A stretch of DNA of 64,000 bases from Bacteroidales bacterium (GTDB lineage Bacteria; Bacteroidota; Bacteroidia; Bacteroidales; WCHB1-69): positions 336-64,335 of the forward strand of contig JAGCCZ010000019.1 in the NCBI GenBank assembly GCA_017651425.1. Reading direction: 5' to 3'. A program made the translations under genes and the position numbers. Within the stretch, counting starts at the first letter, position 1. Each line of letters opens with the position of its first letter. The notes beneath the pieces were generated by a model that had not been told where the DNA came from, searched no databases, and saw only the letters and a list, made by a program, of their open reading frames with translations. Below, in pieces: positions 28,377-50,613 of the stretch.

Positions 28377-28384
28377 CAAAAGTA
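28377..28384 (-). promoter_or_regulatory. Bacteroidetes-type -7 promoter box for the CAT-family gene
   Basis: TACTTTTG on the minus strand, 23 nt upstream of ATG 28354 and 13 nt from repeat R1. Confidence 0.5.
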
Positions 28385-28397: not shown

Positions 28398-28463
28398 CTC
28401 CCGCAGATTACGCAGAATGACGCCGATCTTTTTCTGCGCGAGTCTGCGAGTTCTGCGGGAAAA
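28398..28463 (+). repeat. Triple-hexamer palindromic repeat, copy R1 (orientation A)
   Basis: ctcccgcagattacgcagaatgacgccgatctttttctgcgcgagtctgcgagttctgcgggaaaa. It ends 1 nt before the GNAT stop codon, and the CAT -7 box lies 13 nt to its left. Confidence 0.9.
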
Positions 28464-28464
28464 T

Positions 28465-29010
28465 CTATAACAACTCCAGCCGCAGCACCCGGATTGGTCT
28501 GCCCGCGCCCTGGTACTGCGTCTCGTCGATGCAGGTTTCGCCGGTGGGCACAAAGCCGCACTTCTCCATCACGCGGCCCGAGGCGGGGTTGTCGATGAAG
28601 TGGCCGCTGACGAGGGACTTGATCTCCGTGGTCTTGCAGATGTGGTCCAGCATCAGTCGCAGCGCTTCGGTGCAGATGCCCTGGTTCCAGTAGGGCTTGG
28701 CCACCCAGTAGCCGCAGATGGGCTCGTTTTCGCGGGCGGGAAGTTTGCAGTCGCAGGAGGGACCGTAGCCCATCGCGCCGATGGCCTCGCCGGTCTCCTT
28801 CAACTCAATGGCCCACGTACATAGCGCGTCATTGAACACCGTGCGGATAATCTCCAGGCTTTCCTCCACGCTTTGGTGCGGCGCCCATCCCGCGCGCGGA
28901 CCCACATCAGGGTCGGAGGCATATTTGTAAAGCGACTCCGCATCGCTCTCACGCCACGGACGCAGCAGGATTCGGTCGGTATGGAGGAGGTTGTTATCTT
29001 TTTTATTCAT
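28465..29010 (-). CDS. GNAT family N-acetyltransferase (RimJ/RimL-like)
   Basis: 181 aa. RILLRPWRESDAESLY...YWVAKPYWNQGICTEA is a typical GNAT pattern. Confidence 0.8.
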   Translation of the reverse strand: MNKKDNNLLHTDRILLRPWRESDAESLYKYASDPDVGPRAGWAPHQSVEESLEIIRTVFNDALCTWAIELKETGEAIGAMGYGPSCDCKLPARENEPICGYWVAKPYWNQGICTEALRLMLDHICKTTEIKSLVSGHFIDNPASGRVMEKCGFVPTGETCIDETQYQGAGRPIRVLRLELL

Positions 29011-29031
29011 TGTTAATGTTTTAACAAGTTG

Positions 29032-29421
29032 TCAGACCAAACAAACGCGATGCAACTCTTCGGAGAATCGGATAATCCCCTCTTGTATTTTCCGCACAGT
29101 TTTGACGGAAGGACGGCTTTTGCCAGTTGCATAGTGACTGAGCTGGTGACGGTTGATACCAGTGATGGTTTGCAGGTCAGCAAGGTTTAGCTTCCCGTTT
29201 ATATACTGCAAAAAACTGGCGGTGTCAAACTTGTACTCAAAGGTCATTTCCGGCAGCGAAGGGAGCATCTCCTTGGCTTCATTGTATGAGTTCTGAAGAT
29301 CTGACATCGTTTCCTCCACTGTTTTTCCCATCCCTATGAATCCGATTTTATGCTTGTGCTGCGGAACGGCGGTGAAAGTTCCGTCGTCGTTTCTCTCTAT
29401 AATAACAGTAATGTTTTCCAT
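29032..29421 (-). CDS. HicB-like antitoxin / HTH protein (no HicA partner seen)
   Basis: 129 aa. The N-terminal VIIERNDDGTFTAVPQ looks like a HicB fold. The C-terminal LADLQTITGINRHQLSHYATGKSRPS is an HTH. Confidence 0.6.
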   Translation of the reverse strand: MENITVIIERNDDGTFTAVPQHKHKIGFIGMGKTVEETMSDLQNSYNEAKEMLPSLPEMTFEYKFDTASFLQYINGKLNLADLQTITGINRHQLSHYATGKSRPSVKTVRKIQEGIIRFSEELHRVCLV

Positions 29422-29542
29422 ACTCTATGGATTGATTTAACATTGCAAAAATATACAAATGTATATTGTTTTAAATACACGAGTGGATATTTTTATCAAC
29501 AGATTTATAAACAGCAAGAGGTGCCACTATACTACAAGAAAA

Positions 29543-29608
29543 CATCCGCAGATTACGCAGAATGACGCAGACTTAGTTATGCGTTTATCAGCGAGTTCTG
29601 TGAGAAAA
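29543..29608 (+). repeat. Triple-hexamer palindromic repeat, copy R2 (orientation A, partly decayed)
   Basis: catccgcagattacgcagaatgacgcagacttagttatgcgtttatcagcgagttctgtgagaaaa. Lies 3 nt from the FMN reductase stop. Confidence 0.8.
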
Positions 29609-29611
29609 ACA

Positions 29612-30163
29612 TTATCCCAAATATTCCACGAACGCCTCCGCCTGGGCCTTCAGTGCGGCACGCTGCTCGTCGGTGAGGATCATGCGGCCCTCCGTCCATG
29701 CCTCTGCGTTGAGGGTGACACCCGTCTGTGGTTCAGCCATCACGTCAGCCTTGATGAAGGTGAGCAGTTCGGTGAGCTTCTCGCGGCACTTGCCCGTGGC
29801 CATCTGACCGCCGGCGCCGCTCAACGCCACCTTCTTGCCGTTCATGACCGTCGGCGTGGCGAAATCGTATGCCACCAAGGGGCGGGAAAGCCAATCCAGC
29901 ACGTTTTTCAGATGTCCGGGATAGCTGAAGTTGTATTCGGGGGTGAAAATCCAAAGGCCGTCGGCGTTGGCCACCGTCTCACGCAGCTTGGCCACCGCTG
30001 AGGGCGCGGGATATTCGATGTCCTGGTTGATGAACGGCAAGTCCGTGTAGTCCAAATAGGTGACTTCGGCAATGCCTGCCAAGTTCTTTTCCGCCTCTTG
30101 GGCGAGCTGCCGGTTGAAGGAGTCTTTTCTCAGCGAACCGACGATGAAGAGGATTTTTTTCAT
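29612..30163 (-). CDS. NAD(P)H-dependent FMN reductase family oxidoreductase
   Basis: 183 aa. MKKILFIVGSLRKDSFNRQLA and TPEYNFSYPG are typical of the family. Confidence 0.8.
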   Translation of the reverse strand: MKKILFIVGSLRKDSFNRQLAQEAEKNLAGIAEVTYLDYTDLPFINQDIEYPAPSAVAKLRETVANADGLWIFTPEYNFSYPGHLKNVLDWLSRPLVAYDFATPTVMNGKKVALSGAGGQMATGKCREKLTELLTFIKADVMAEPQTGVTLNAEAWTEGRMILTDEQRAALKAQAEAFVEYLG

Positions 30164-30188
30164 AAATGTGGATATTTGTATTTTTTAA

Positions 30189-30599
30189 TTAATTGTCAGA
30201 CTTTTTCCTCAAACTCACGATGGCCGCCACAACCTCCACCAAGCCGAGCACAAAATAGAGGTTGCTGATGGCATTGAAGCCCCATACCCACCATTCGAGG
30301 ACAATCCAGAGCATCAGGATGATGCCGCAGACGAGGACCGCCCACTGCGCGAGCGGATGCTTCTTGAAGAGCAGATACACTGCTGCTAATTGGGTAACAC
30401 CGTTCAGGAACAGCAGCACAAAGCCCGACGGGATGAAGTCGCGGAAGAAGATATCCGGCCAAGGCATTTTTGCACGCAGCATCTCTAACAGTGGCTCGCC
30501 GCCCCACGCTACACCCGTAGGGTCAATCCACATCATCACGGCACCGCCAATTGCGCCGATACCGATGAAAAGGGTCAGGATTTTTTCGAGTTTGAGCAT
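30189..30599 (-). CDS. Membrane protein, hypothetical (4 TM)
   Basis: 136-aa hydrophobic ORF. Confidence 0.5.
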   Translation of the reverse strand: MLKLEKILTLFIGIGAIGGAVMMWIDPTGVAWGGEPLLEMLRAKMPWPDIFFRDFIPSGFVLLFLNGVTQLAAVYLLFKKHPLAQWAVLVCGIILMLWIVLEWWVWGFNAISNLYFVLGLVEVVAAIVSLRKKSDN

Positions 30600-30645
30600 A
30601 CAATTATGGATTAATTATACAATGTAATATCAGTGTTAATTGTTG

Positions 30646-30873
30646 TCAGCGTTTTCGTTTTGTTTTCATTAGGCAGATAAACAGAATGACAATCAGCACA
30701 TTGCTGACAATAAGAGAGATGAAGAGACTGTAAATGTGATGATAGTAATTGGATTCGGTCAGACAATAGTTGCCATCAACTAATGCGGCAATGCACATTA
30801 GGACTTCTAAAACGACGATGGCGATAAAAGCTAAAACTGAGAAGATTATTAATACTTTTCTCTTGTTATTCAT
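30646..30873 (-). CDS. Small membrane protein, hypothetical
   Basis: 75 aa from ATG 30873 (MNNKRKVLIIFSVLAFIAIVV...) with two TM helices. Confidence 0.4.
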   Translation of the reverse strand: MNNKRKVLIIFSVLAFIAIVVLEVLMCIAALVDGNYCLTESNYYHHIYSLFISLIVSNVLIVILFICLMKTKRKR

Positions 30874-31040
30874 ACCATTATTATTTCGAACGGCAAAAGT
30901 ACACAAAATGTGTGGATGCTTTTCATTTGGTGAAAAAATGAAATAGCATTCATTTTACGTTATATCTTTTATAAAAGAAATTTGCCGTAAATAATCATCT
31001 TTATATTTTTGGAAGATAAAAATCGCCGTGAATAAAAATT

Positions 31041-31104
31041 TTCCCGCAAACTGCGCAGAATAACGCAGACCTTTTTCTGCGTATATCAGCGAATTCTGCG
31101 GGAG
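31041..31104 (+). repeat. Triple-hexamer palindromic repeat, copy R3 (orientation A)
   Basis: ttcccgcaaactgcgcagaataacgcagacctttttctgcgtatatcagcgaattctgcgggag. Lies 3 nt from the stop of ORF 31108. Confidence 0.9.
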
Positions 31105-31107
31105 GAA

Positions 31108-31620
31108 TTATTCGCGGAACTCACTGATTTTATGATAGGCGTATCCAGACACCGTATCGAATACGAGCAAGTGATCGAACGGGGTGCGGATACAACGGTA
31201 ATATTGCAGATGGTCTTCCGGAACGACTTGCCATTCAATGAACACGGCGAAATATGCTTGTGGCAACGAACCGAATTTTTGTTCAATCTCTTCCCTACTG
31301 CAAGGCTTTAGTGTGCTGTCTGGGACAATATCCGAGTAACAACAAGGTTTTGACATAAGTGCAGACTCCACTTCGGCAGGTGAAGCTTTATATCGGAACC
31401 AGTAATTGTAAAGCGAACCATTTTCTCTTGCCCCAACACACTCGCGGTCAGCCAATTCCGGATACAAATCACCAATGTTGTATTCCTGTGCATTCCCATT
31501 CCACCAATTTGCCCATTTATGCTTAATCTTTGAGCAAGAAACCGATGCGAAAATGAAAAAGCATCCGAGGACTGCAACAACTACAAATTGTATAATCCGA
31601 TTATTTCTCATAGCAATCAT
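31108..31620 (-). CDS. Secreted or lipoprotein hypothetical protein
   Basis: 170 aa with N-terminal FVVVAVLGCFFIFASVSCSK. The stop is 3 nt from repeat copy R3. Confidence 0.5.
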   Translation of the reverse strand: MIAMRNNRIIQFVVVAVLGCFFIFASVSCSKIKHKWANWWNGNAQEYNIGDLYPELADRECVGARENGSLYNYWFRYKASPAEVESALMSKPCCYSDIVPDSTLKPCSREEIEQKFGSLPQAYFAVFIEWQVVPEDHLQYYRCIRTPFDHLLVFDTVSGYAYHKISEFRE

Positions 31621-31640
31621 CCAGCTTTTGATGTAATAAA

Positions 31641-31704
31641 TGCCCGCAAACTGTGCAGAATAACGCAGACCTTTTTCTGCGCAAGTCTGCGAGTTCCGCG
31701 GGAG
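31641..31704 (+). repeat. Triple-hexamer palindromic repeat, copy R4 (orientation A)
   Basis: tgcccgcaaactgtgcagaataacgcagacctttttctgcgcaagtctgcgagttccgcgggag. Lies 9 nt from the stop of ORF 31714 and 20 nt from the start codon at 31620. Confidence 0.9.
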
Positions 31705-31713
31705 AATAATCCG

Positions 31714-32211
31714 TTAACAAAACACCCACGCATACACCCCCGCCCCGATCAGGCACGGAATCAGTCCGATGAGCATTCCCCACAGCGACTGCACGAAGTG
31801 GTACTTTTTCTGATGGTAGGCCGCGTCCATGTGTTCGGTGCCGGGGAGGCGCACGGACTTCATATTGGCGAAGAGCACCCAGTCGAGAAAGAAGCAGTCG
31901 TACCAGTCGATGACGAACCAGATGCCGTAGCTCAGCGCGAACGCCGACCAGAAGTTATAGGCGCTGGCCAGCTTCATCAGCCCGAGCATCACAGCCAGGG
32001 TAACGAGCAGCGCAAAGCCCTTCTTAAGCAGCACGGTCTTGGTGAAGAACTTCGACGGCACGCGCTCGTGTGTCTTGAAGTACTCCTCTTGGATGTCCTC
32101 CGGATAGTCGTGAATCCACCACACGGGGTTCTTCACGAGCGGGATCAGAATCATGGCCGTGAACGCGGCGGTCATGACGAGGGTTTCGATGATGATGATG
32201 GTCCAGTTCAT
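31714..32211 (-). CDS. Membrane protein, hypothetical
   Basis: 165 aa, about 4 TM. The stop is 9 nt from repeat copy R4. Confidence 0.5.
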   Translation of the reverse strand: MNWTIIIIETLVMTAAFTAMILIPLVKNPVWWIHDYPEDIQEEYFKTHERVPSKFFTKTVLLKKGFALLVTLAVMLGLMKLASAYNFWSAFALSYGIWFVIDWYDCFFLDWVLFANMKSVRLPGTEHMDAAYHQKKYHFVQSLWGMLIGLIPCLIGAGVYAWVFC

Positions 32212-32243
32212 AGTTTTAGTGATCAGTGAACAGTGAATAGTGA

Positions 32244-33440
32244 TCAGTGAGTTGGTGAATGGTTAACGATTAGGTTCCGTTGTTTGGAGAACGGTGATTG
32301 GGTGTTCGTTTTGACTTTTTTCTTCTCCCCCAGCACGCACCACCGCACAAACGGAATCCGACGGACGGTTTCGTAAATTAGTGGCGACAGGGTGAAAACC
32401 GCTATAATAAGAATAAGGTACAGTGCCACTGGCGGTAGCTGAGTATAGACTTTCATCATATAGCCAAGGCTGACAATCACCAGATAATGAACGATGTAGA
32501 TGCCAAAACTGGAGCGGGTCATATATCCGGCAAAGGCGTTTGTCTTGTCGAATTTGGCAATGAACCAGCCCATCATGGCAAGGCACATAAACCCGCCATA
32601 GATGCAGTTGAAGGGGTCGGCAAGATACTGCGGTGTGGTGTTGTTCTCGCCGTATGTGTCAAATAAAAGATAAACGCAAGCCACAATGGCGCAAGCCATA
32701 TCTATCCACCAACCATCAGACAGGTATTTTTGTATCTTCTTTGACGAGAAGCAATAATAGCCCAGCAGGAAGAAAATAAGGTAGAACAGCGGCTTGTAGA
32801 GGTTGTAGAGTCCGTCTGCGGATTCGGGGCGCGGGTTGAAAATAAGCGTTTGCCCGCCGAGCCAATACAGCACACAAATACCAAAGAGCATAATCTTCGG
32901 AAGATACCAATATTCGTAGTCGTGAAAGTGTTTTTTAACCTTCTTATTCTTTATTTTGAAATGCCAGTCCCTCGTTATCCGCCGTATCAGCAGCAGAATC
33001 AGCGAGAACAGCCACAGATCCTGGATAAACCACAGCGGTCCCGTTCCGCTGACCGCCCAAACGCAAAACTTGAGAGGCTGTGGCACCGAAGCCAGCACAT
33101 CCGTCCCGCCCACGTGCGTGTTGAAGTAGCCCTCCATCCAATGGAACACGAACAGTCCGATGGTGGATGGGACCAGCAGCTTTAGGGTTCGGGACTTAAA
33201 CCACTCCTTGCCGGAATGTCTGTCTAACGCGTACTTTGCGCTGATGCCCGCCAAAATGAACAGCAGCGGCATGAACCAAGGATAGAGGATGTACATCAGC
33301 ACATCCTGGTACTGCGGACCGTCGCCGAAACCGCCCACACCGCCGAAAACGCCCTTGTTGTTGTAAAAGTAGATGACGTGATACAACAACACCAACATCA
33401 CGGTGACCCAACGCAGATTGTCAACCCAGTATTTTCTCAT
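32244..33440 (-). CDS. Acyltransferase family 3 membrane protein (OafA/OpgC-like)
   Basis: Start chosen at MRKYWVDNLRWVTVMLVLLYH, a typical acyltransferase_3 N-terminus. About 10 TM. Confidence 0.7.
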   Translation of the reverse strand: MRKYWVDNLRWVTVMLVLLYHVIYFYNNKGVFGGVGGFGDGPQYQDVLMYILYPWFMPLLFILAGISAKYALDRHSGKEWFKSRTLKLLVPSTIGLFVFHWMEGYFNTHVGGTDVLASVPQPLKFCVWAVSGTGPLWFIQDLWLFSLILLLIRRITRDWHFKIKNKKVKKHFHDYEYWYLPKIMLFGICVLYWLGGQTLIFNPRPESADGLYNLYKPLFYLIFFLLGYYCFSSKKIQKYLSDGWWIDMACAIVACVYLLFDTYGENNTTPQYLADPFNCIYGGFMCLAMMGWFIAKFDKTNAFAGYMTRSSFGIYIVHYLVIVSLGYMMKVYTQLPPVALYLILIIAVFTLSPLIYETVRRIPFVRWCVLGEKKKVKTNTQSPFSKQRNLIVNHSPTH

Positions 33441-33512
33441 AAAGCACTTTTTTCCGGCGGCAAAAGTACGCAAAATGCGGGGATGTGTTTTCATTTGGCG
33501 GAAAAATATTAT

Positions 33513-33577
33513 CTCCCGCAGAACTCGCAGATTTACGCAGAAAAAAGTCTGCGTTAGTCTGCGAAATCTGCGGGAAA
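33513..33577 (-). repeat. Triple-hexamer palindromic repeat, copy R5 (orientation B, the only inverted full copy)
   Basis: ctcccgcagaactcgcagatttacgcagaaaaaagtctgcgttagtctgcgaaatctgcgggaaa. Sits in the divergent promoter region between 33440 (-) and 33618 (+). Confidence 0.9.
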
Positions 33578-33585
33578 TATTTTTG

Positions 33586-33593
33586 TATTTTTG
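33586..33593 (+). promoter_or_regulatory. Bacteroidetes-type -7 promoter box (TAnnTTTG) for the M28 peptidase gene
   Basis: TATTTTTG lies 25 nt upstream of ATG 33618 and 8 nt after the end of repeat R5. Confidence 0.5.
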
Positions 33594-33617
33594 CCGCTGA
33601 ATTTAATACCCGAAGCA

Positions 33618-34892
33618 ATGAAAAAAACGACTCTGTTAGTATTGGCGTTTATATTGACGGCGATGATTCCTGGAACGCCGCTACAGGCGCAGGATCTGGA
33701 GTATTACAAACAGATTGTCAAAGAACTGAGCTCCGCAAAGTACCAGGGGCGCGGCTATGCCTACGGCGGCGCCAACAAGGCAGGGAAATACCTGTTGAAA
33801 GAGTACAAGAAAGCAGGCGTGGACGAAGTGAGATGCCAGCCGTTCACTATCGACATCAACACCTTCCCCGGCAAGATGGAAATGTTTGTGGATGGCAAGA
33901 AATTGACCCCGGGTGTCGATTTCTCGATGCGTGAATACTCGCCGGGCGTGCGCGGCACCTACAAACTCTACTATGTCGATACGAACAACTACGATGCCGA
34001 GAAGATGTTTGCCGACCTGGCGAAACCCGAGTACAAGGACTGCTTCGTGGTCTGCGACTTCTGGTTCTCCTACCGTCATTACGGCGACTTCCAGAAGATC
34101 TGGGGCGGTACTGAATGCGCCAACGCCGGGATGATCCAGACGTGGCCTCCCTTGCTGAAATTCTACAAGGCCTACGGCGAGAAGGTGATGGGCAAGCCCG
34201 TCATCTGGGCCACCTCCGACTTCCCGAAGGATGCCAAAACCATCACCGTCAACATCGAGAACGAGTTTCTGAAGGACTACGAACTCTTCAACGTCATCGC
34301 CAAGGTGGAGGGTCGGCGGCACGACAGCTGCTTCGTTTTCACGGCGCACTACGATCACCTCGGCAACCTCGGCAAGAAGGTGTTCTATGCAGGTGCCAAC
34401 GACAACGCCTCCGGCACCGCCGCTATCGTGACCCTCGCGGCCTACTACGCCCAAAACCGTCCCGAATACGATATGTACTTCATCGCCTTCTCCGGCGAGG
34501 ACGCCAACCTTCGCGGCTCGGAATATTACGTGGATCACAACCCCGTCGTGCCGCTCTCGCAGATTAAGTACCTGTTCAACATCGATATGATCGGCGACAA
34601 CAACCCGGTGCAGTACTGCGAGGTCAGCGACGAGGGATTGCGCGGTTACGCTTTGATGGAGCGAATCAACGATGAGAAACACCATTTCAAAGGATTGAAC
34701 CGTGCCGAGTTGGAGGGCAACAGCGACCACTACCCGTTCGCCCTGCGCCACGTGCCGTGCATCCTCTTCGAGAACGAGAGCGGCGACGCGTTCCAGTACT
34801 ACCACACCGTCAACGACGACTGGGAGCACGCGGTGTTCGACACGTACGAGCCGCTGTTCCGGTTGGTGCGGGATTTCATCGAAAAGTATTGA
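33618..34892 (+). CDS. M28 family zinc peptidase (aminopeptidase)
   Basis: Signal peptide MKKTTLLVLAFILTAMIPG. AHYDHLG, GANDNASGTA, FSGEDANLRGSEYY, NIDMIG and SDHYPF are the M28 ligand and active-site blocks. Confidence 0.85.
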   Translation: MKKTTLLVLAFILTAMIPGTPLQAQDLEYYKQIVKELSSAKYQGRGYAYGGANKAGKYLLKEYKKAGVDEVRCQPFTIDINTFPGKMEMFVDGKKLTPGVDFSMREYSPGVRGTYKLYYVDTNNYDAEKMFADLAKPEYKDCFVVCDFWFSYRHYGDFQKIWGGTECANAGMIQTWPPLLKFYKAYGEKVMGKPVIWATSDFPKDAKTITVNIENEFLKDYELFNVIAKVEGRRHDSCFVFTAHYDHLGNLGKKVFYAGANDNASGTAAIVTLAAYYAQNRPEYDMYFIAFSGEDANLRGSEYYVDHNPVVPLSQIKYLFNIDMIGDNNPVQYCEVSDEGLRGYALMERINDEKHHFKGLNRAELEGNSDHYPFALRHVPCILFENESGDAFQYYHTVNDDWEHAVFDTYEPLFRLVRDFIEKY

Positions 34893-34900
34893 TATTTAGC

Positions 34901-34964
34901 TTCCCGCAGATTTCGCAGATTAACGCAGACTTTTTTCTGCGGGTTCTGCGAGTTCAGCGGGAAT
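34901..34964 (+). repeat. Triple-hexamer palindromic repeat, copy R6 (orientation A)
   Basis: ttcccgcagatttcgcagattaacgcagacttttttctgcgggttctgcgagttcagcgggaat. Starts 8 nt after the M28 peptidase stop. Confidence 0.9.
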
Positions 34965-35067
34965 AACATCTCCAGTAGATCTCACAAACTGGTGCTAAAA
35001 AGCACTAACCTCAATGTGTATCTTGCACAATGTGGGATATGACACTTCACTCTGGAATTCGCATCAC

Positions 35068-35514: not shown

Positions 35515-35593
35515 GCTTTATCTTGAATGAAACAGCAGATGTTTTTTGTCTCCGCGTATCACACGTATATGCACGTGATGTTTTTGCAAGATA

Positions 35594-35869
35594 CTATTGA
35601 CCAAACAATTCCACGTGACTTCCCAATCTGACGAGCTGGATGATATTGTTCACTTCGTCAATCCAAATCAGCAGAAAATCCCCTTGAATATGGCATTCCA
35701 TACAACCTTTGTACCTGCCGTGGAGTTTATGGGGAAAATATTCCGCTGGAATAGGTTTCCCTTTTTGCAACAAAAGGAGAACTTCCCTAAGCAGTGCGAC
35801 TTTTTCAACGTTATTCTTGATACGTTTAAAGTCTTTTTTGTACTGAGTGGTTGGTTGCAGTTTTTTCAT
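35594..35869 (-). CDS. Type II toxin, YafQ/RelE family mRNA interferase
   Basis: 91 aa. YKKDFKR...HKLHGRYKGCMECHIQGDFLLIW...LVRLGSHVELF matches the YafQ pattern. Overlaps the antitoxin stop by 4 nt. Confidence 0.8.
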   Translation of the reverse strand: MKKLQPTTQYKKDFKRIKNNVEKVALLREVLLLLQKGKPIPAEYFPHKLHGRYKGCMECHIQGDFLLIWIDEVNNIIQLVRLGSHVELFGQ

Positions 35870-36117
35870 TCTGTCGCACTCAAATCATCTAACAAGTCGT
35901 CCACACTATCATAGACCTTATTTTGGTTACGCCCTGACATGGCTTCTGCGATAGCCGCTTTTGTTATATCGTTGGGCTCATCATAAACCACGTCAAGCAG
36001 AACGCTTTCCACATAGTTGTTGAGCGTTCTGTTCACCTTGGCGGCATTTTGTTTCAGCCGTTCCAACAGGTCTGTTCTAAGACGGAACGAAGTGTTCTTT
36101 CTTACAATAGTTTCCAT
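35866..36117 (-). CDS. Type II antitoxin (RHH / DinJ-RelB-like)
   Basis: 83 aa. SFRLRTDLLERLKQNAAKVNRTLNNYVESVL is a ribbon-helix-helix-like N-terminus. Translationally coupled to the toxin. Confidence 0.7.
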   Translation of the reverse strand: METIVRKNTSFRLRTDLLERLKQNAAKVNRTLNNYVESVLLDVVYDEPNDITKAAIAEAMSGRNQNKVYDSVDDLLDDLSATE

Positions 36118-36204
36118 TTGTAATACAATTAAATATTTTTGGCTGCAAAAATAATATTTTTTTTCGGATAGAAAGCAGATTGTCTAAAAAAAGTATTTTT
36201 GTCG

Positions 36205-36229
36205 AAAATAACGAACCACTATGTCAAAG
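36205..36229 (+). repeat. 25-bp perfect direct repeat, left copy (duplicate of the promoter-proximal leader and first 3 codons of gene 37219)
   Basis: aaaataacgaaccactatgtcaaag is identical to 37203-37227. Confidence 0.9.
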
Positions 36230-36256
36230 CGCAAGTCTGCGAGTTCCGGGGGAAAA
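36230..36256 (+). repeat. Right half of the palindromic repeat, copy R7 (orientation A)
   Basis: cgcaagtctgcgagttccgggggaaaa. The left arm is missing. It begins directly after the 25-bp duplicated segment 36205-36229. Confidence 0.75.
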
Positions 36257-36294
36257 TATTTTTCCTATTTTCGCGCCCATAAAAACATCCCGTT

Positions 36295-37113
36295 ATGAAG
36301 AAATACAGAGCCCCCATCCTCCTGTTCGCCATTTTCGAGGTCATTGCCGTATCGCTTTGGCTCTCAACAGGTAACCTCTTCTTTCTGCTGAACTTTTCCT
36401 ACATCGGCATCTGCCTCGGCGTCGGGGGAATATTGATGACAGCAGGGTGGAAACACGCCCGTGAGTTCGTGCAGTTCACCGTAGGCAGCTACATTCTGGT
36501 GTTCCTCGGCCTTGTCTGTCGCGAGAACATGCAGATAGAGGGATTCTGGTACTATCTGCTCTCCGGGGTTGTCGGGGCGGGGGTGCTGCACTACCTCATC
36601 GCCAAGATCTTCGGGCCGTTGCTGTTCGGGCGCGGCTGGTGCGGGTTTGCCTGCTGGACCGCGATGATTCTCGACCTGTTGCCGTACAAGCAGCCCGCGA
36701 AACTACGGAAATCCTTCGGATGGGTGCGCTATGTGATGTTCGCGCTGTCGCTCGCCATCGTCATCCTGCTGATGTGCCTCGGCAAAGCCGACAAAACCAC
36801 GATGTTCTACCTTTTCGTGGCCGGGAATGTGCTCTACTACGCCGTCGGAATCGTCCTGGCTGTCGTGTTGAAGGACAACCGCGCCTTCTGCAAGTACATC
36901 TGCCCCATCACCGTCTTCCTCAAACCGATGAGCTACTTCTCCTTACTGCGCATCAAGTGCGACGAGGAGAAGTGCATCCATTGCGACAAGTGCCTGAAAG
37001 TCTGCCCGATGGAGGTGGAGGTCAACAACAACTCGCGCAAGCGGAAGAACGCCACCGAGTGCATCCTCTGCCAGCAGTGCAAGAAGGCGTGCCCGGTGGG
37101 GGCGCTGAAATAG
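36295..37113 (+). CDS. Membrane-bound 4Fe-4S binding protein (NapH/MauN-like)
   Basis: 272 aa, about 6 TM, with C-terminal CIHCDKCLKVCP and CILCQQCKKACP ferredoxin motifs. Confidence 0.7.
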   Translation: MKKYRAPILLFAIFEVIAVSLWLSTGNLFFLLNFSYIGICLGVGGILMTAGWKHAREFVQFTVGSYILVFLGLVCRENMQIEGFWYYLLSGVVGAGVLHYLIAKIFGPLLFGRGWCGFACWTAMILDLLPYKQPAKLRKSFGWVRYVMFALSLAIVILLMCLGKADKTTMFYLFVAGNVLYYAVGIVLAVVLKDNRAFCKYICPITVFLKPMSYFSLLRIKCDEEKCIHCDKCLKVCPMEVEVNNNSRKRKNATECILCQQCKKACPVGALK

Positions 37114-37117
37114 TTCT

Positions 37118-37181
37118 CTCCCGCAGATCTCGCAGAACATCGCAAATCTTTTTTCTGCGCAAATCAGCGAGTTCAGCGGGA
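37118..37181 (+). repeat. Triple-hexamer palindromic repeat, copy R8 (orientation A)
   Basis: ctcccgcagatctcgcagaacatcgcaaatcttttttctgcgcaaatcagcgagttcagcggga. Starts 4 nt after the 4Fe-4S protein stop. Confidence 0.9.
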
Positions 37182-37188
37182 TAATTTT

Positions 37189-37196
37189 TATTTTTG
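37189..37196 (+). promoter_or_regulatory. Bacteroidetes-type -7 promoter box for lipoprotein gene 37219
   Basis: TATTTTTG lies 23 nt upstream of the ATG and 7 nt after the end of repeat R8. Confidence 0.5.
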
Positions 37197-37202
37197 CACT
37201 CC

Positions 37203-37227
37203 AAAATAACGAACCACTATGTCAAAG
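37203..37227 (+). repeat. 25-bp perfect direct repeat, right copy (contains the ATG of the lipoprotein gene at 37219)
   Basis: aaaataacgaaccactatgtcaaag is identical to 36205-36229, 998 bp upstream. Confidence 0.9.
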
Positions 37228-38406
37228 AGAATCTTAAGCATTCTGTTTGTAGCACTGTCGGCAACGCTCTTCTTGACTGCCTGCAAGGTCGGCGGGAAGA
37301 CGACGACAGTCACGATGGAGGAGTTTCGGAACACCGACCTTTCGCGGATGATTATACCGGACTCCATCCTGACAAACCCCGACTACTGTTCCCAAAAGGA
37401 TGAGTTTATGTTCATCGAAAAAACCTCCGAGTTCGAGCCCATCGGGTATCGAGGCCGTGACTTCCAACGGTTCTACATCCATTACGACAGCGTCCGTTTT
37501 ATGGGCAATGGAGTCTATAAGGTGGAGGGACGCACCCGCTACCGCGACACTATCCGGCTTTTCTCCGGGACCATCACGCTGGACTCTATGCGCCTGAACA
37601 AAGGGAAGCACCTACCGTCAACGGGTAAATTCGGGAAGTTGTGCGGGCATTTCCAGTTCGATGAGGACGAATTTTCCGGCGGCGGGGTCCTGACGGGCAA
37701 AATGTGGATTGGCTTCGCAAAAATTAACGGGCGGTTCTACTACGATGCTTTTAAGTTAGGTTTGGCCGACGGTTACAGTAACCGCCAGTACGAGGGTGTG
37801 TGGACTTCGAAAGGCCTCACCCGGATGGAGAAATGCAACTGGGGCGATTTCCGGATACCCGATTCAAGAGGATTAGGGTCGGGTGAGGCTGAATTTATTT
37901 CCAGAGATTCGTGTCTCGACCGCGGATGGCGTATTTATACTTACGGTTGGGCCGAGAGTGATTCTTTACAGGCTATATATCAGGCGGATATGCAATGGTT
38001 TACCCACGAGGAAGACTATGTCATTCCCTATTCCGGACGGCTGCAGCGGTATCTGAAAGAGTACGGCTACGGAAAGAGTCAGCCCTCGGCAAAAGTGGTT
38101 TTGGGGACTATCCCGGTGACCTATGACGAATTTGAGATTTGGGTGTTGTTGCAAGGTGGCAAATTATGGACTACCACAAGCCAATACGCGCACGCCGACA
38201 GTGCAGGCATTATGTTTGCCTATATGCGTATGGGGCAATTGAGATTCCCAGACGGGGATTCCGATGCGATGTGGGAAGCTTTTTTTGATGATTACATCGT
38301 GTTGCAAAAGGAGCATCCTGCCCTTTTCGACCAATACCGCAAACAGTTGTCCGAAAAATGGAACCAAGCATTTGATGGCTGGAAGAAAGAGATGTACGGG
38401 GAGTAG
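37219..38406 (+). CDS. Lipoprotein, hypothetical, paralogue of 22863..24176
   Basis: 395 aa with lipobox LFLTAC. Shares FQRFYIHYD, DGYSNRQY and CNWGDFRIPDS blocks with 22863..24176. Confidence 0.55.
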   Translation: MSKRILSILFVALSATLFLTACKVGGKTTTVTMEEFRNTDLSRMIIPDSILTNPDYCSQKDEFMFIEKTSEFEPIGYRGRDFQRFYIHYDSVRFMGNGVYKVEGRTRYRDTIRLFSGTITLDSMRLNKGKHLPSTGKFGKLCGHFQFDEDEFSGGGVLTGKMWIGFAKINGRFYYDAFKLGLADGYSNRQYEGVWTSKGLTRMEKCNWGDFRIPDSRGLGSGEAEFISRDSCLDRGWRIYTYGWAESDSLQAIYQADMQWFTHEEDYVIPYSGRLQRYLKEYGYGKSQPSAKVVLGTIPVTYDEFEIWVLLQGGKLWTTTSQYAHADSAGIMFAYMRMGQLRFPDGDSDAMWEAFFDDYIVLQKEHPALFDQYRKQLSEKWNQAFDGWKKEMYGE

Positions 38407-38433
38407 GGACACAGTGCATTGCGTCTCCACAAT

Positions 38434-38464
38434 TTTCTGCGCATCTCAGCGTGTTATGCATAAA
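38434..38464 (+). repeat. Decayed right half of the palindromic repeat, copy R9
   Basis: ttttctgcgcatctcagcgtgttatgcataaa resembles TTTTCTGCGCAAATCAGCGAGTTC.GCGGGAAA. Starts 27 nt after the lipoprotein stop. Confidence 0.5.
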
Positions 38465-38485
38465 TGTGGAAGTCCTTAACCGTAT

Positions 38486-39823: not shown

Positions 39824-39935
39824 ATAACACATCGGAAAGTTCGATTTTGTGTATCACCGTTACACTTTTCCTAACTTTCGGCTGCAAAAATACAAAAATA
39901 TTCATTCACCTTTTCTATTGTTCTTTAGAAAAAAA

Positions 39936-40066
39936 TCCCTGCGGACTGTACAAAAACACAGAACTTCTCCTACATGATGCAAATTAGTCATCTTCTGCGG
40001 ACACTCAATACTTTACAGAACATCGCAGATCTTTTTCCTGCGCAAATCAGCGGGTTACGTAGGGTT
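39936..40066 (+). repeat. Decayed composite of the palindromic repeat, copy R10
   Basis: tccctgcggactgtacaaaaacacaga (left-arm-like) ... ttctgcggacactcaatactttacagaacatcgcagatctttttcctgcgcaaatcagcgggttacgtaggg. The right part aligns well to copy R8. Ends 5 nt before the WG-repeat gene stop. Confidence 0.6.
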
Positions 40067-40071
40067 TACCA

Positions 40072-40575
40072 TCAGTATCTATCCAGAATATTTCCCTGCT
40101 TGTCAAGTTCGAACCAATGACCACGACCTTTCATCACCTGCACTGTGCCGAATTGGAATCGGCCCACGAGATCGTATTTTAACGGAATGACTACATTCCC
40201 CGTTGTGTCAATATAGCCCCATTTCTTCCGCAGACATACTCCCGCTCTTTCTTCATAAAAATAAGACACATTTTTGAATTGTGGTTCGATGACTATGATT
40301 GCATTTGTGTCGGCGAATCCCCATTTGTTCCCAACACGTACTGGTATCAAGCCGTCTTTACCCCACCAGGGATATTCTTCGTATGCCCTAAACCATTCAA
40401 TGGATGAGTCCGAAACACGGCATTTTTCCTGAAAAGCTTCTATCCAAGCCTCTTTTGTCATCTGATCCAATTGTCCATCCTTATTTTGCGCCAAACAACT
40501 TACGGAGAACATCATCGCAAGAGTGCATACTAAAAACAGTGTTTTAGTTCCCAAAGTGTTTCTTTTAAATGCCAT
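40072..40575 (-). CDS. Secreted WG-repeat (KWG) protein
   Basis: Start chosen at MAFKRNTLGTKTLFLVCTLAMMFSVSCLAQ. Contains NKWGFAD and KKWGYID WG repeats. Confidence 0.6.
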   Translation of the reverse strand: MAFKRNTLGTKTLFLVCTLAMMFSVSCLAQNKDGQLDQMTKEAWIEAFQEKCRVSDSSIEWFRAYEEYPWWGKDGLIPVRVGNKWGFADTNAIIVIEPQFKNVSYFYEERAGVCLRKKWGYIDTTGNVVIPLKYDLVGRFQFGTVQVMKGRGHWFELDKQGNILDRY

Positions 40576-40681
40576 ATTTCCAAACATCCAAACGAGCGAT
40601 TCTTTAAGCAATATCTTATAAAACAACGCAAAAATATAAAATCCTGCTTAATAAAACTCAAATTTTTTTTACGCAAATTCT

Positions 40682-40745
40682 CTCCCGCAGACTTCGCAGA
40701 CTGACGCAGATCTTTTTTCTGCGTAAATCAGCGGGTTCTTCGGGC
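40682..40745 (+). repeat. Triple-hexamer palindromic repeat, copy R11 (orientation A)
   Basis: ctcccgcagacttcgcagactgacgcagatcttttttctgcgtaaatcagcgggttcttcgggc. Lies 6 nt from the ICMT-like gene stop. Confidence 0.9.
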
Positions 40746-40751
40746 ATCCCA

Positions 40752-41423
40752 CTACCACACAAACGGAATCACTTTGTACCGAACTTTCTGTTTATACTCC
40801 GTGTATCCTTCAAGTCCCTGCTCCAAGACGGCCTCCTCGTTACGGATGCGCTTGGCGATGATGGGGATGTAGAGCAGCATGATCAGAAACGACCACGGGG
40901 AAGCCAACACCATGGGCATAGCGAGGAAAAGTACCAATGTGGCGGCGTACATCGGATGCCGAACAATGCTGTACAGTCCCGTGTCCACCACTTTCTGATG
41001 CTCCTGCACCTCGATGGTGCGCGACAGCCAGACGTTTTCGCGGAGCACCTCGGCGTAGAGTGCGTAGCCGATCAGGAAAACCACGGAGGCCGCATATACC
41101 GCCCAATCCGGCAGCAGGCACCATTGGAAACGATAGTTGAGGCCAGCCATTACGAACATCGCGAGGAACATTAGGCCACTTAACGCGACCACCCACTTCT
41201 GTTCCCCCTGCTTCTCCTTGGCATCCAATCGTTTGCACAACAGCTCGGGCTGGCGGAGCAACAGCACCACGCCCGCAATGAGCATCGGCCCGAACAGCAA
41301 GGCGATGAAAAGCCATCCCTGCCAGTAGGCGAAGGTGCCCGCCGGCAAAAACAGCAACGCACCCACCAGCACTAATCCGGCGAGGAACTTTGTCAGGGCT
41401 TGGAAAAAGAGTTTTGAGGTCAT
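40752..41423 (-). CDS. Isoprenylcysteine carboxyl methyltransferase (ICMT)/phospholipid methyltransferase family membrane protein
   Basis: 223 aa, multi-TM. TGLYSIVRHPMY is the family signature. Confidence 0.75.
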   Translation of the reverse strand: MTSKLFFQALTKFLAGLVLVGALLFLPAGTFAYWQGWLFIALLFGPMLIAGVVLLLRQPELLCKRLDAKEKQGEQKWVVALSGLMFLAMFVMAGLNYRFQWCLLPDWAVYAASVVFLIGYALYAEVLRENVWLSRTIEVQEHQKVVDTGLYSIVRHPMYAATLVLFLAMPMVLASPWSFLIMLLYIPIIAKRIRNEEAVLEQGLEGYTEYKQKVRYKVIPFVW

Positions 41424-41441
41424 ATCTTATTTGTTTTGTTT

Positions 41442-41506
41442 CTCCCGCAGACTGCGCAGACTGACGCAGACTGTTTTCAGCGTAAATCGGCGAGTTCTGC
41501 TGGAAA
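41442..41506 (+). repeat. Triple-hexamer palindromic repeat, copy R12 (orientation A)
   Basis: ctcccgcagactgcgcagactgacgcagactgttttcagcgtaaatcggcgagttctgctggaaaa. Lies 13 nt from the Fic stop and 18 nt from the ICMT-like start codon. Confidence 0.9.
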
Positions 41507-41519
41507 ACATATTTCCCGT

Positions 41520-42548
41520 TTATTTCAACACCTCCCAATGTCCGCTCTTGTTGCTGCCGACGCGAATGATATAGCCTGCTGTCTTCAGCTCGCCGAGTCG
41601 GCGCTTGACGGTGGCTTCAGACACGCCTAACAGAGCACCGTACGCCGCATAATTGAGACTGTTGTCTTTCAACACAGCCTGATAGAGCCGCTCCGTTATC
41701 GGGTCAGCGAACCGTTTTATCGGGTCAGAAAGCGGTTTTATCGGGTCAGCGGACTGGGATTCCTTGAACTCCTCAATCTCTTTGCGGATGTTGCGGGTGT
41801 GCTGTTCCAACATAAACCGACGGAATGGTTCTGTACTTTCCTGTTCCCTTGAATCAACCAACGACTGGATGTATTCTGCTTTGTCAGCTTTGTCGATTTT
41901 CACGGGCACCAGTCCGAATTCATATTGCAGATGATTCATCACCAATCTGGACATGCGTCCGTTGCCATCTACCCGGGGATGAATGGTCACCAATTGATAA
42001 TGGGCATCGAACGTCAACAGATATTTGGCAATCAAATCGTTAGAATTGACAAGCTGCCGTCTCATTTCGTTCAACTGCAGACAGAACTCCTGCAATTTTT
42101 CTGGAACTTTCCGATAATCCATGTAGGAGCGTCCACCGATTCCAGCGGTGACGCTGACTAAGCGCAAGTCCCCTTTGGATGCATCAAATGAACCTTGCAC
42201 TGTATTGTACGCACTTCCAGTGTTTTTCATAACCAGTGCGGACATCGTTTTCAGCATTTCCACGGAAAAATCTGTATGTTGTTCGGCAAGCCGCATCGAA
42301 TGTTCGTAAGCCGCTTTCAGGTCAAGGTTCATCAGCTGTTCCTGCATACTTCGTCCCTTCGCGGAAATACCCTCATCAAACAGCAGCTGGTTCTCAATTT
42401 CCGTGACAGTACTCCCTTCGATAGCCGTGGAATGGGTAATAATGGAATACAGATAGAACTTTTTGTAGTCTCTCTGTTCCGCAATTCCCAACGACTGGTA
42501 CTCATTGAGTGCGTCAAGCAATTGTTGTTCCTGTTTCGTGACCATCAC
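41520..42548 (-). CDS. Fic family protein with a C-terminal winged-helix domain
   Basis: 342 aa. HPRVDGNGRMSR matches the Fic motif HxFx(D/E)GNGRxxR except R in place of F. The C-terminal region is VKRRLGELKTAGYIIRVG. Confidence 0.8.
   Translation of the reverse strand: MMVTKQEQQLLDALNEYQSLGIAEQRDYKKFYLYSIITHSTAIEGSTVTEIENQLLFDEGISAKGRSMQEQLMNLDLKAAYEHSMRLAEQHTDFSVEMLKTMSALVMKNTGSAYNTVQGSFDASKGDLRLVSVTAGIGGRSYMDYRKVPEKLQEFCLQLNEMRRQLVNSNDLIAKYLLTFDAHYQLVTIHPRVDGNGRMSRLVMNHLQYEFGLVPVKIDKADKAEYIQSLVDSREQESTEPFRRFMLEQHTRNIRKEIEEFKESQSADPIKPLSDPIKRFADPITERLYQAVLKDNSLNYAAYGALLGVSEATVKRRLGELKTAGYIIRVGSNKSGHWEVLK
41696..41755. repeat. 21-bp tandem repeat x3 inside the Fic gene
   Basis: TTATCGGGTCAG recurs at 41696, 41717 and 41738. 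It encodes DPIK/DPIK/DPIT heptads (SADPIKPLSDPIKRFADPITE) on the minus strand. Confidence 0.8.
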
Positions 42549-42564
42549 AGCTGTTTTTCAGCGG

Positions 42565-42572
42565 CAAAAGTA
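42565..42572 (-). promoter_or_regulatory. Bacteroidetes-type -7 promoter box for the Fic gene
   Basis: TACTTTTG on the minus strand, 17 nt upstream of ATG 42548 and 18 nt from repeat R13. Confidence 0.5.
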
Positions 42573-42590
42573 CTATTTTTCCTGATATTT

Positions 42591-42655
42591 CTCCCGCAGA
42601 CTGCGCAGACTGACGCAGACTTTTTCAGCGTAAATCGGCGAGGTCTGCGGGAAAA
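42591..42655 (+). repeat. Triple-hexamer palindromic repeat, copy R13 (orientation A)
   Basis: ctcccgcagactgcgcagactgacgcagactttttcagcgtaaatcggcgaggtctgcgggaaaa. Differs from R12 by one indel and two substitutions. Lies 4 nt from the flavodoxin stop. Confidence 0.9.
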
Positions 42656-42659
42656 TGAA

Positions 42660-43502
42660 CTACCGTATCACCTTCGTGAACACCGGCGCTTTGTCTTTCT
42701 CCACCGTCACATAGACCTGGATCTCGTCGGTGGGCATGTCCGGCTTGTCCTCGCGGGGAAGGTTGACGGCGGTGAAGAGGTATTCCGTGCCGTCGGGCAG
42801 GGAGCGCACCGCCACCGTCTTGGCCTTGGCATTCAGCATCTGATAGCCATCGACAGCCGCGTCGAAGATGGCCGCTTCCTCTTCGCTAACCTCGTGTTGC
42901 GCAGGGAATTCCTCCAACTGTATGAATTCACCTTCAAGGAATCCGTTGGCTTTCAGGAAATTGTCAACTTCTTTGGGCATCGCCTCCATGCGGGCGGCGC
43001 GGACACCGTAGCCGGGCAGAATCTCCGCATTGGGCTCAGCTGACGCCAAGTCCTTCGCACTGGACTCCAGACCGCCGCTGCCGAAGGTGCAGAACGGCAC
43101 AATCTTCTTGCCACTCAAATCGTTGCTGAGAAGGAACTTCTGCACTGGCGGCACGTATGTGCCGAACCAGATGGGATAGCCGATAAAGATGATGTCATAA
43201 TCAGCAATGTTGGATTTGATCGGCTGAATGTCGGGGATGTTCCCTTGTTCATGTTCCTGCTTGCAGCGCTCAATGGTGGCTTGGAAGTCGCCATCGTATG
43301 GGTTCACCGCCACGATCTCTTCGATGTCGGCACCGAGCTTGCCGGAGATCTCCTCGGCCACGGCTTTGGTGTTGCCGGTTTGGGAATAATAGAGGACGAG
43401 CATCTTGGGGGCTTCCTCTTTCGGGGTTTCTTTCTTGGAACCGCAGGAGACGGCGGTCAGCGTCACGACTGCGAGAAGCAGTATCAATTTGGGACTTTTC
43501 AT
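42660..43502 (-). CDS. Flavodoxin-domain lipoprotein with an extra C-terminal domain
   Basis: 280 aa with lipobox AVSCGS. LVLYYSQTGNTKAVAEEI is a flavodoxin FMN-binding N-terminus. Confidence 0.65.
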   Translation of the reverse strand: MKSPKLILLLAVVTLTAVSCGSKKETPKEEAPKMLVLYYSQTGNTKAVAEEISGKLGADIEEIVAVNPYDGDFQATIERCKQEHEQGNIPDIQPIKSNIADYDIIFIGYPIWFGTYVPPVQKFLLSNDLSGKKIVPFCTFGSGGLESSAKDLASAEPNAEILPGYGVRAARMEAMPKEVDNFLKANGFLEGEFIQLEEFPAQHEVSEEEAAIFDAAVDGYQMLNAKAKTVAVRSLPDGTEYLFTAVNLPREDKPDMPTDEIQVYVTVEKDKAPVFTKVIR

Positions 43503-43552
43503 AGGATTGTTCTTTTATTTCAAGATGCAAAAATACTATTTTCTCGGATATT

Positions 43553-43617
43553 ATCCCGCAGACTACGCAGAATGACGCAGAAATAATGTCTGCGTTAATC
43601 AGCGGTTTCGGCGGGAG
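43553..43617 (+). repeat. Triple-hexamer palindromic repeat, copy R14 (orientation A)
   Basis: atcccgcagactacgcagaatgacgcagaaataatgtctgcgttaatcagcggtttcggcgggag. Lies 1 nt from the DMT transporter stop. Confidence 0.85.
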
Positions 43618-43618
43618 A

Positions 43619-50578: not shown

Positions 50579-50613
50579 GGTAGAGCTGCAAAAAGAAATA
50601 AATCCACAAAAAT

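Follow-up and report, generated by a model that had tools for sequence, protein, structure and literature searches.

The 64-kb window considered here, meaning the whole stretch of DNA that was analyzed, comes from a Bacteroidales bacterium found in bovine and sheep gut metagenomes and carries an island of small accessory genes separated by copies of a palindromic repeat of ~65 nt, each arm of which is built from three phased CGCWGA units. The genes lying between copies are unrelated to one another and comprise CAT-like, GNAT, helix-turn-helix (HTH) protein, FMN-reductase, Acyl_transf_3, M28 and YafQ toxin-pair genes, together with Fer4, AAA_14/DUF4143, WG-repeat, ICMT, Fic, flavodoxin and EamA genes; their GC content at third codon positions (GC3) jumps from gene to gene, between 0.42 and 0.86. 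Toxin-antitoxin-type genes are scattered through the window, and thus fit an accessory island: a MazF/PemK toxin gene (11866-12198), a gene for an HTH protein of antitoxin size (29032-29421) and the YafQ toxin gene with its upstream 83-aa partner (35594-36117).

Eleven full and five to six partial copies of the repeat are present (Table 1), where the chance expectation is zero, and they sit at the coordinates reported in an initial annotation of this DNA. A repeat-family search of the window, which recovered a left-arm family of 13 members and a right-arm family of 12, agreed with these coordinates to within a few nucleotides. A covariance model (CM) was made from an alignment of the 11 full copies; run with filters off at E ≤ 0.1, the model returned exactly those 11 copies (74-94 bits) and a partial match at 40008-40058, and nothing else in the 64 kb. 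The pattern CGCAGA-N(2-5)-CGCAGA-N(2-6)-CGCAGA matches 10 times in the window, as compared to 0.00 times in 100 dinucleotide-preserving shuffles. Half copies at three sites and a composite of two degenerate copies are likewise as first described. Of this genome ~66 kb is readable; full copies are missing from positions 1-28 kb and 44-64 kb and from the ~2-4 kb past the right end of the window, and the clustering within 15 kb that had been pointed out is real.

As a single strand, each copy forms three short stems that are separated, in all 11 full copies, by internal loops of 3-4 nt. The outer stem, (T)CCCGCAGA / TCTGCGGG(A), is found in 11 of 11 copies, and flanking T4...A4 tracts prolong it. 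The three-stem hairpin is the predicted RNA fold of every copy (-16 to -42 kcal/mol, z -2.3 to -11.5), and all copies also fold as DNA (-9 to -26 kcal/mol), bearing out the anatomy and the stable fold that the initial annotation had proposed. Its remaining structural claims fare similarly, with one addition. Invariant columns of the 11-copy alignment fall within the hexamers, and the spacers and apical loop vary; the hexamers are phased in 9-10 bp steps; and the two middle-stem subfamilies that had been distinguished, TCTGCG and TCAGCG, both exist, alongside a third form, TCGGCG. The suggested check for compensatory changes found none among the 11 full copies. The orientation bias is also real, as the + strand scores 13-36 bits higher for 10 of the 11 full copies and only the copy at 33513 favors the - strand (93.8 vs 81.1 bits), such that orientation follows the chromosome, whatever the strand of the adjoining gene. 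The left halves of neighboring copies are more alike than those of distant copies (0.87 vs 0.81 identity, permutation p=0.003), a pattern that fits local exchange or copying.

Inspection of the surrounding genes shows that all copies are intergenic and that, in 10 of the 11 full copies, one end of the repeat lies 1-13 nt from a stop codon, this being the right end for genes on the - strand and the left end for the two + strand genes (M28 and Fer4). Between the hairpin and the next gene, 9 of the 11 copies are accompanied by a TAnnTTTG box, the -7 box of Bacteroidetes promoters, situated 19-41 nt before the start codon; 11 such boxes fall within ~700 nt, where the background rate is 0.5 per kb per strand. 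Given this combination of stop-codon abutment and promoter boxes, the array is, as read from its sequence, a chain of single-gene transcription units, each consisting of a predicted promoter, an open reading frame (ORF) and a hairpin. A terminator scan of 20 kb returned 23 sites, with 21.6 expected. One promoter-like string, AATATTTTTGTATTTTTGCAGCCGAAA, which contains two overlapping TAnnTTTG boxes, occurs twice behind a hairpin, once ahead of the M28 gene (33578-33600, +) and once ahead of the AAA_14/DUF4143 gene (39880-39900, -), and from this recurrence the promoter may travel with the repeat in some units.

Table 1. Copies and fragments of the repeat, predicted promoter boxes and related features. 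Positions are those of the window unless a locus is named; CM, covariance-model match.
Feature	Position	Strand	Details
Full copy	28398..28463	+	CM 89.0 bits; RNA fold -33.9 kcal/mol; right end 1 nt from stop of GNAT gene (28465-29010, -)
Full copy, most decayed	29543..29608	+	CM 74.4 bits; fold -16 kcal/mol; 3 nt from stop of FMN-reductase gene (29612-30163, -)
Full copy	31041..31104	+	CM 87.2 bits; 3 nt from stop of gene 31108-31620 (-)
Full copy	31641..31704	+	CM; 9 nt from stop of gene 31714-32211 (-); left half 96% identical to left half of copy 31041
Full copy, sole inverted	33513..33577	-	CM 93.8 bits; fold -42.1 kcal/mol, z -11.5; six perfect hexamers; between divergent genes 32244-33440 (-) and 33618-34892 (+)
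Full copy	34901..34964	+	CM; 8 nt past stop of M28 peptidase gene (33618-34892, +); left half 96% identical to left half of inverted copy 33513
Right half only	36223..36256	+	Repeat-family match at 71%; related contig L255 has a shortened two-armed copy there (L255 13414-13479)
Full copy	37118..37181	+	CM 80.5 bits; 4 nt past stop of Fer4 membrane-protein gene (36295-37113, +)
Decayed right half	38433..38466	+	Repeat-family match at 65%; 27 nt past stop of gene 37219-38406 (+)
Two abutting degenerate copies	39936..40066	+	B, 39936-40000; A, 40008-40058; CM partial match 27.7 bits
Full copy	40682..40745	+	CM 80.6 bits; 6 nt from stop of ICMT gene (40752-41423, -)
Full copy	41442..41506	+	CM; 13 nt from stop of Fic gene (41520-42545, -); 18 nt from the next start codon, with no promoter box in the gap
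Full copy	42591..42655	+	CM; 4 nt from stop of flavodoxin gene; first 38 nt 97% identical to copy 41442, the two bracketing the Fic unit
Full copy	43553..43617	+	CM 81.5 bits; 1 nt from stop of EamA gene (43619-44599, -)
Solitary left arm (CGCAGA x3)	55392..55423	+	6 nt past stop of gene 53772-55385 (+)
Fragments	63617..63665	+	End of right arm, then degenerate left arm
TACTTTTG, Bacteroidetes-type -7 box	28377..28384	-	22 nt before start of CAT-like gene
-7 boxes	29446-29463, 30894-30901, 33461-33468, 40629-40636, 42565-42572, 43528-43535	-	
-7 boxes	33578-33593, 37189-37196	+	
DUF6794+DAGK segment	44603-46614		Absent from L123
Tandem arrays	L379 9141-9992; L380 9354-9978; L196 12442-12669; L221 5220-5397		

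Comparison with related contigs shows that several strain breakpoints lie in or at the hairpins, and that they fall at either hairpin end rather than at a single fixed point. Two contigs from two samples (L124 and L125) are without the Fic gene and one repeat, and a single hybrid copy remains at the site. In L126, the ICMT and WG genes are absent, and the breakpoint lies within the outer stem (CCGCAGAA) of copy 41442 and degenerate copy B, where only ~8-10 nt of sequence are common to the two partners. Among more distant relatives, two independent assemblies (L255 and L256) carry a hairpin-Fic-hairpin-AAA-hairpin-Fer4-hairpin segment of 3.6 kb between other genes (SDR and release factor), with a Fic protein of 96% amino-acid identity, and have hairpins only within this accessory segment. 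Another such relative (L252, ~80% nucleotide identity) has the order flavodoxin-hairpin-Fic-hairpin-EamA, as compared to EamA-hairpin-flavodoxin-hairpin-Fic in the window. Logan contigs add joints of the same type: in run X7, position 30601 is joined to 31643, so that gene 31108-31620 and copy 31041 are absent; in run X26, 37136 is joined to 38453, with gene 37219-38406 absent and a single repeat left; and in run X9, 37154 is joined to 36229. Other joints with ends in repeats link 39909 to 40752, 43571 to 28421, 42597 to 31665 and 34961 to 33514. The backward joints 34961 to 33514 and 43571 to 28421 are compatible with circles, and equally with other gene arrangements or assembly chimeras. The organism is absent from raw-read runs X21-X23. 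In a comparison of L382 with L383, which concern the DNA just past the right end, the MBOAT gene (window 62100-63518) is swapped in another strain for two small unrelated ORFs, a replacement that adjoins the repeat fragments near the window's end.

The repeat family is apparently undescribed. None of the 4227 Rfam covariance models matched at its gathering score in the window or in 18 further loci, and none matched region 40600-43700 at E ≤ 1; literature searches on the motif, on Bacteroidetes repeats and on GxxExxY/PDDEXK_3 proteins likewise found no description of it, in keeping with the initial annotation's statement that it belongs to no named family. Missing from Rfam and easy to model, the family marks the 3' ends of genes in lineages with few canonical terminators. 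Its constituent unit is widespread. An exact scan of species-representative genomes for CGCAGA-N3-CGCAGA-N4-CGCAGA gave at least 120 loci, with roughly 17 chance matches of the arm expected in 596 Gb by an arithmetic estimate. The matches listed include Planctomycetota, Verrucomicrobiota, Acidobacteriota, Chloroflexota, Bacteroidota, Gemmatimonadota and Spirochaetota, several proteobacterial classes and one archaeon; no Firmicutes or Actinobacteria appear among their titled records. Many of the matches listed are full hairpins, with loops of 15-170 nt, and about half of the exact arms (162 hits, which merge into 101 solitary arms) lack an inverted partner at a distance of up to 260 nt. Hairpins lie within 60 nt of ORF stops more often than of ORF starts (51 vs 28), and most solitary arms past genes read in the CGCAGA sense (21 vs 9). 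Genes preceding the element in other phyla include recA, rpsP, hflX, lexA and dinB. In JGI metagenomes, most of the listed matches to the Bacteroidota-type outer stem hold one element. A further 115 loci match in IMG/VR, some on contigs with many copies; these contigs are genuine phage genomes that encode major head, portal and terminase proteins, and their hairpins, 2-18 nt past stop codons, separate co-oriented genes. Other three-fold phased units (CACGGAT, CGCGGAT, CGCAAAG and GGAGTTA) occur beside CGCAGA arms in five loci (L009, L067, L088, L041 and L049), which suggests a broader class of phased-unit repeats.

Examination of 113 hairpins indicates that it is the sequence of the unit, more than its ability to pair, that is kept. 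At the variable unit position, the opposing bases are A-T in 263 cases, A.A in 27, G.T in 14, T.T in 8, G-C in 5 and T-A in 1, and the left and right bases are independent (Fisher p=0.59). One subfamily has TCAGCG in all three right-arm units, leaving an A.A mismatch in each stem, and folds weakly still. This near-absence of covariation, together with the A.A subfamily and the partnerless arms, favors recognition of the CGCWGA units by sequence over pairing alone and so points to a protein, in a manner equally compatible with recognition on duplex DNA, single-stranded DNA or RNA. An RNA-polymerase pause motif in the TCTGCG arm, or selection on the 3' arm of the transcript only, was considered and rejected, as hairpins with one perfect arm have no preference with respect to the adjacent gene (21 vs 18).

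A candidate for such a protein comes from the genes next to the element in other genomes. In one locus (L250), arms flank a 125-aa gene classed by NCBIfam as 'GxxExxY protein' (TIGR04256, Pfam PDDEXK_3). Among the loci picked for the repeat there are 10 GxxExxY genes, 8 of which have arms within 150 nt and five of which are flanked on either side, by a CGCAGA arm ahead of the gene and a TCTGCG arm behind it. Because these loci had been chosen for the repeat, a second set of contigs was selected from a protein search alone, regardless of repeats; in all five independent loci of this set, the GxxExxY gene is bracketed by hairpins of the window family, which share the outer stem, spacing and TCAGCG variant of the window copies and lie 5-8 nt past the stop codon. 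When the window-derived covariance model was run with filters off over four 20-kb regions, it gave matches of up to 72.8 bits only within ~900 nt of GxxExxY; in L380 and L381, too, all matches adjoin the gene, lying within ~650 nt and ~225 nt, respectively. Some GxxExxY loci hold up to eight tandem hairpin copies. Whole-hairpin arrays beside these genes have a period of ~113 nt and right-arm-only arrays a period of ~42-48 nt (Table 1), from which the repeat evidently expands locally. The GxxExxY model (predicted local distance difference test score, pLDDT, 88) gave Cas4 SSO0001 as the top PDB match by fold, with lambda-exonuclease-like nucleases next, that is, only the generic PD-(D/E)XK core; sequence comparison with the PDB gave no match. 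The closest relatives in the protein search are mostly from Bacteroidota, and a search of viral contigs returned one locus only. A survey lists the function of GxxExxY/PDDEXK_3 as 'Unknown', with 'multiple transfers' between divisions (PMC3424549), and literature searches found no paper tying the family to a repeat. For a family this large, a repeat that brackets all sampled members offers a directly testable candidate substrate. No other gene emerges as a shared neighbor: all-against-all clustering of ORFs from the 120 loci gave no protein family common to more than 9 loci and no integrase or transposase as a common neighbor, and genes for four-helix-bundle proteins (TIGR02436), tried as an alternative partner, occur in 2 loci and have no arms within 150 nt.

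The explanation that we prefer, at a probability of about 0.5, is that the repeat is an extragenic palindrome akin to the repetitive extragenic palindromes (REPs), which would delimit the 3' boundary of accessory-gene units and provide joints for shuffling them as cassettes, with the GxxExxY nuclease as its likely partner. Each unit comprises a predicted Bacteroidetes promoter (TAnnTTTG), an ORF and a hairpin 1-13 nt past the stop codon, and a chain of these units makes up a hypervariable island of accessory genes. On the transcript, the hairpin may form at the 3' end and then terminate, insulate or stabilize the message; on the chromosome, the repeated hairpin-plus-promoter modules may act as joints for the gain, loss and reordering of whole gene units. 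By analogy, GxxExxY would stand to the repeat as the REP-associated tyrosine transposase (RAYT) stands to REPs, binding or cutting the units and thereby spreading and maintaining them. The element would then be filed, provisionally, with extragenic palindromic repeats that have a partner gene. Accessory genes in this island would be packaged so that strains differ one gene at a time, and the island may be a chromosomal counterpart of phage cassette shuffling and of integron cassettes, with no integrase found nearby.

A broader proposal, which we put forward tentatively, is that three-stem CGCWGA palindromes and the GxxExxY (PDDEXK_3) nuclease together form an unrecognized repeat/enzyme system across bacteria and phages. 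Such a system would parallel that of REPIN-RAYT, run instead by a PD-(D/E)XK nuclease that recognizes the phased units either on duplex DNA or in an extruded hairpin; through cutting and repair, the repeat and the genes next to it would be copied to new positions immediately behind stop codons. If this is so, arrays such as that of the window, whose gene cassettes can be exchanged one by one, could be built without any integrase.

Several observations weigh against the preferred explanation. At the RNA level, a contig from run X26 (43419-43727) reads through copy 43553, in a survey of four RNA runs that gave sparse, low-depth contigs, and a run of at least four T residues within 8 nt follows only ~5 of the 11 copies; given so few T-runs, and T4...A4 flanks that only lengthen the stem, the element does not look like a canonical intrinsic terminator. 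Copies 31641 and 41442 lie only 18-20 nt before the next gene with no promoter box between, and transcription must therefore cross them if those genes are to be expressed. An orientation fixed with respect to the chromosome renders a purely RNA-level role insufficient and, together with the microhomology junction in L126, leaves a site-specific or single-strand mechanism in contention. With respect to shuffling, one related assembly (L123, GCA_024681675.1) is without the DUF6794 and DAGK genes between DNA_alkylation and EamA and has no hairpin at the borders of the missing segment; not every indel uses the repeat, and the island also changes by other means. Since palindromes can cause assembly chimeras, the Logan joints count as supporting evidence only. 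The placement of the element behind housekeeping genes elsewhere indicates that cassette behavior is not general, and the 64-kb window itself contains no GxxExxY gene or remnant.

Other accounts explain parts of these data. Were the phased CGCWGA sites to work as duplex iterons ~10 bp apart, bound by the GxxExxY nuclease, a regulator or a roadblock protein, extrusion of a hairpin would be incidental; conservation of hexamer sequence in place of pairing, the paucity of compensatory changes, the triple-TCAGCG subfamily, the 162 partnerless arms and the tandem arm arrays would all follow, the 9-10 bp phase would set the units on one face of the helix, and constancy of the unit across phyla would reflect a conserved, horizontally spreading protein partner. 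We nonetheless regard this account as unlikely, since every full copy in the window is a complete palindrome with a strong fold, the abutment of stop codons and the sense bias of solitary arms point to the transcript, and no binding protein was identified. It is rather unlikely that the copies are ordinary, immobile terminator or stabilizer hairpins, kept alike by local duplication and gene conversion, with the indels arising between short repeats. Their position behind stops and before promoters would be expected of such hairpins, as would the likeness of neighboring copies; the copies flanking Fic, at 97% identity over 38 nt, share enough for RecA-dependent deletion, and orthologous copies in L252 and L255 have decayed relative to the window like neutral DNA. 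The U-tract is inconsistent, however, and local duplication cannot explain the distribution, because a family identical in unit, spacing, outer stem and TCAGCG variant recurs next to all GxxExxY genes sampled, as well as in phages and across many phyla.

Mobility of a different kind would be involved if the folded single strand, or the duplex, were an integron-like site for a trans-acting recombinase encoded elsewhere, which would make the array the counterpart of a CALIN (attC sites clustered without an integrase). Many features are suggestive of this: co-orientation whatever the gene strand, sites directly behind ORFs, cargo similar to that of chromosomal integrons (acetyltransferases, toxin-antitoxin genes and unknowns), presence or absence of the Fic unit with one hybrid site left, the permuted gene order in L252, an L126 junction whose shared sequence is too short for ordinary homologous recombination, and mismatches conserved on one arm only, as are those attC features that select the strand. 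No attC core (RYYYAAC/GTTRRRY) is present, however; an integrase was found neither in the 64 kb, nor in the DNA past the right end, nor as a common neighbor in the 120 loci; cassettes occupy both strands and have their own promoters; breakpoints lack a fixed point; and elsewhere the element is mostly single and behind housekeeping genes. We thus consider an integron-like site improbable. Far less probable still is mobilization by a Y1 (HUH) transposase, as a single-strand element of the REP/RAYT or IS200/IS605 type. The repeat is palindromic and extragenic, and a chromosome-fixed orientation is what strand-specific transposition of single-stranded DNA would produce, but neither a GTAG nor a CGTC tag is present, 65 nt and three stems are unlike known TnpA or RAYT hairpins, and Y1_Tnp genes are absent from the window. 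None of the window ORFs scanned with Pfam encodes a recombinase or transposase domain, which removes from the window the partners that the initial annotation had suggested (a RAYT-type Y1 transposase, or a tyrosine or serine recombinase). The only Y1_Tnp gene in 2.7 Mb of loci lies in L252 (1-600), where a RAYT-like gene precedes a distinct REP-like pair of its own (…GGGCTGAAAGCCTGAC…CCTAGGGTGA…), and so represents a second, unrelated repeat system in the lineage.

The closest described parallel to the modular shuffling proposed here is that of the promoter-early stem-loop (PeSL) mobile regulatory cassettes of T4-type phages (PMC2839356; PMC4122927), in which a promoter and a stem-loop flank non-essential genes and recombination occurs between PeSLs, with mini-circles (PMC2839356). 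The window likewise has a repeated intergenic stem-loop and promoter module that flanks small non-essential genes in a hyperplastic or variable region, and indels and replacements between relatives end at the modules (L124, L125, L126, L255 and L252, with L123 the exception). Unlike PeSLs, the window repeat is chromosomal and in Bacteroidales, though it has relatives in phages; it differs in sequence, has a three-stem iterated arm, keeps its promoter outside the conserved repeat and is linked to a nuclease gene family, and it is known here from sequence alone.

Membership in other established classes fails on the features of the repeat. As with REPs, the bacterial interspersed mosaic elements (BIMEs) composed of them and the REPIN-RAYT systems (PMC3733652; PMC3116915), the copies are numerous, clustered, imperfect extragenic palindromes at gene 3' ends, and a protein-coding gene is itself flanked by repeats. 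A REP, however, is a palindrome of 20-40 bp with an unpaired GTAG or CGTC tag (PMC3733652); the window repeat is 65 nt long, with three phased units per arm, and with no such tag and no Y1 gene in the window it does not belong to the REP/RAYT class. The flanked gene here encodes a PD-(D/E)XK nuclease (GxxExxY) in place of a Y1 HUH transposase (Y1_Tnp, PF01797), and the same unit is found in many phyla, in contrast to REPs, which are as a rule specific to one species. The attC sites of integrons and CALINs (57-141 nt) resemble the repeat in being co-oriented imperfect palindromes directly behind ORFs, with two or three stems, unpaired spacers, heterogeneous accessory cargo and single-cassette presence or absence. 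All 11 full copies lack R'' (RYYYAAC) and R' (GTTRRRY) and have no AAC...GTT at their ends; without these core sites and an IntI, and with cassettes that carry their own promoters on both strands and breakpoints that vary in position, assignment to attC fails as well. The MITE class (miniature inverted-repeat transposable elements) was rejected on the grounds that the flanks have no direct duplication and that a transposase is neither present in the window nor shared among the 120 loci. The processing hairpins cut by RNase III in phage T7 and intrinsic terminators are similar in that hairpins with internal loops recur between the cistrons of co-oriented genes, also in phages; they differ from the present element, whose U-tract is inconsistent and whose stem is conserved in sequence and not only in shape, and the class of canonical intrinsic terminators appears unsuitable as well.

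Three further features of the window stand apart from the repeat. An SbcD-like gene (Metallophos/SbcD_C, from the domain scan) lies at the start of the window, in region 1184-5845, beside a 1136-aa ORF that we take to be SbcC. SbcCD cuts DNA hairpins, and its proximity to a hairpin-rich island is probably a coincidence. A two-gene module, consisting of Cupin_5 and a 270-aa membrane protein that starts M(T/N)E..RTTLFGILKLIPFA, is partly triplicated (13548-14865, 16385-17191 and 50610-51924), at 74-87% nucleotide identity and with one copy 37 kb from the other two. Lastly, the gene for an 872-aa Por_Secre_tail protein contains three direct repeats of ~37 nt, 255-270 nt apart (58314-58875), which are probably internal domain repeats.

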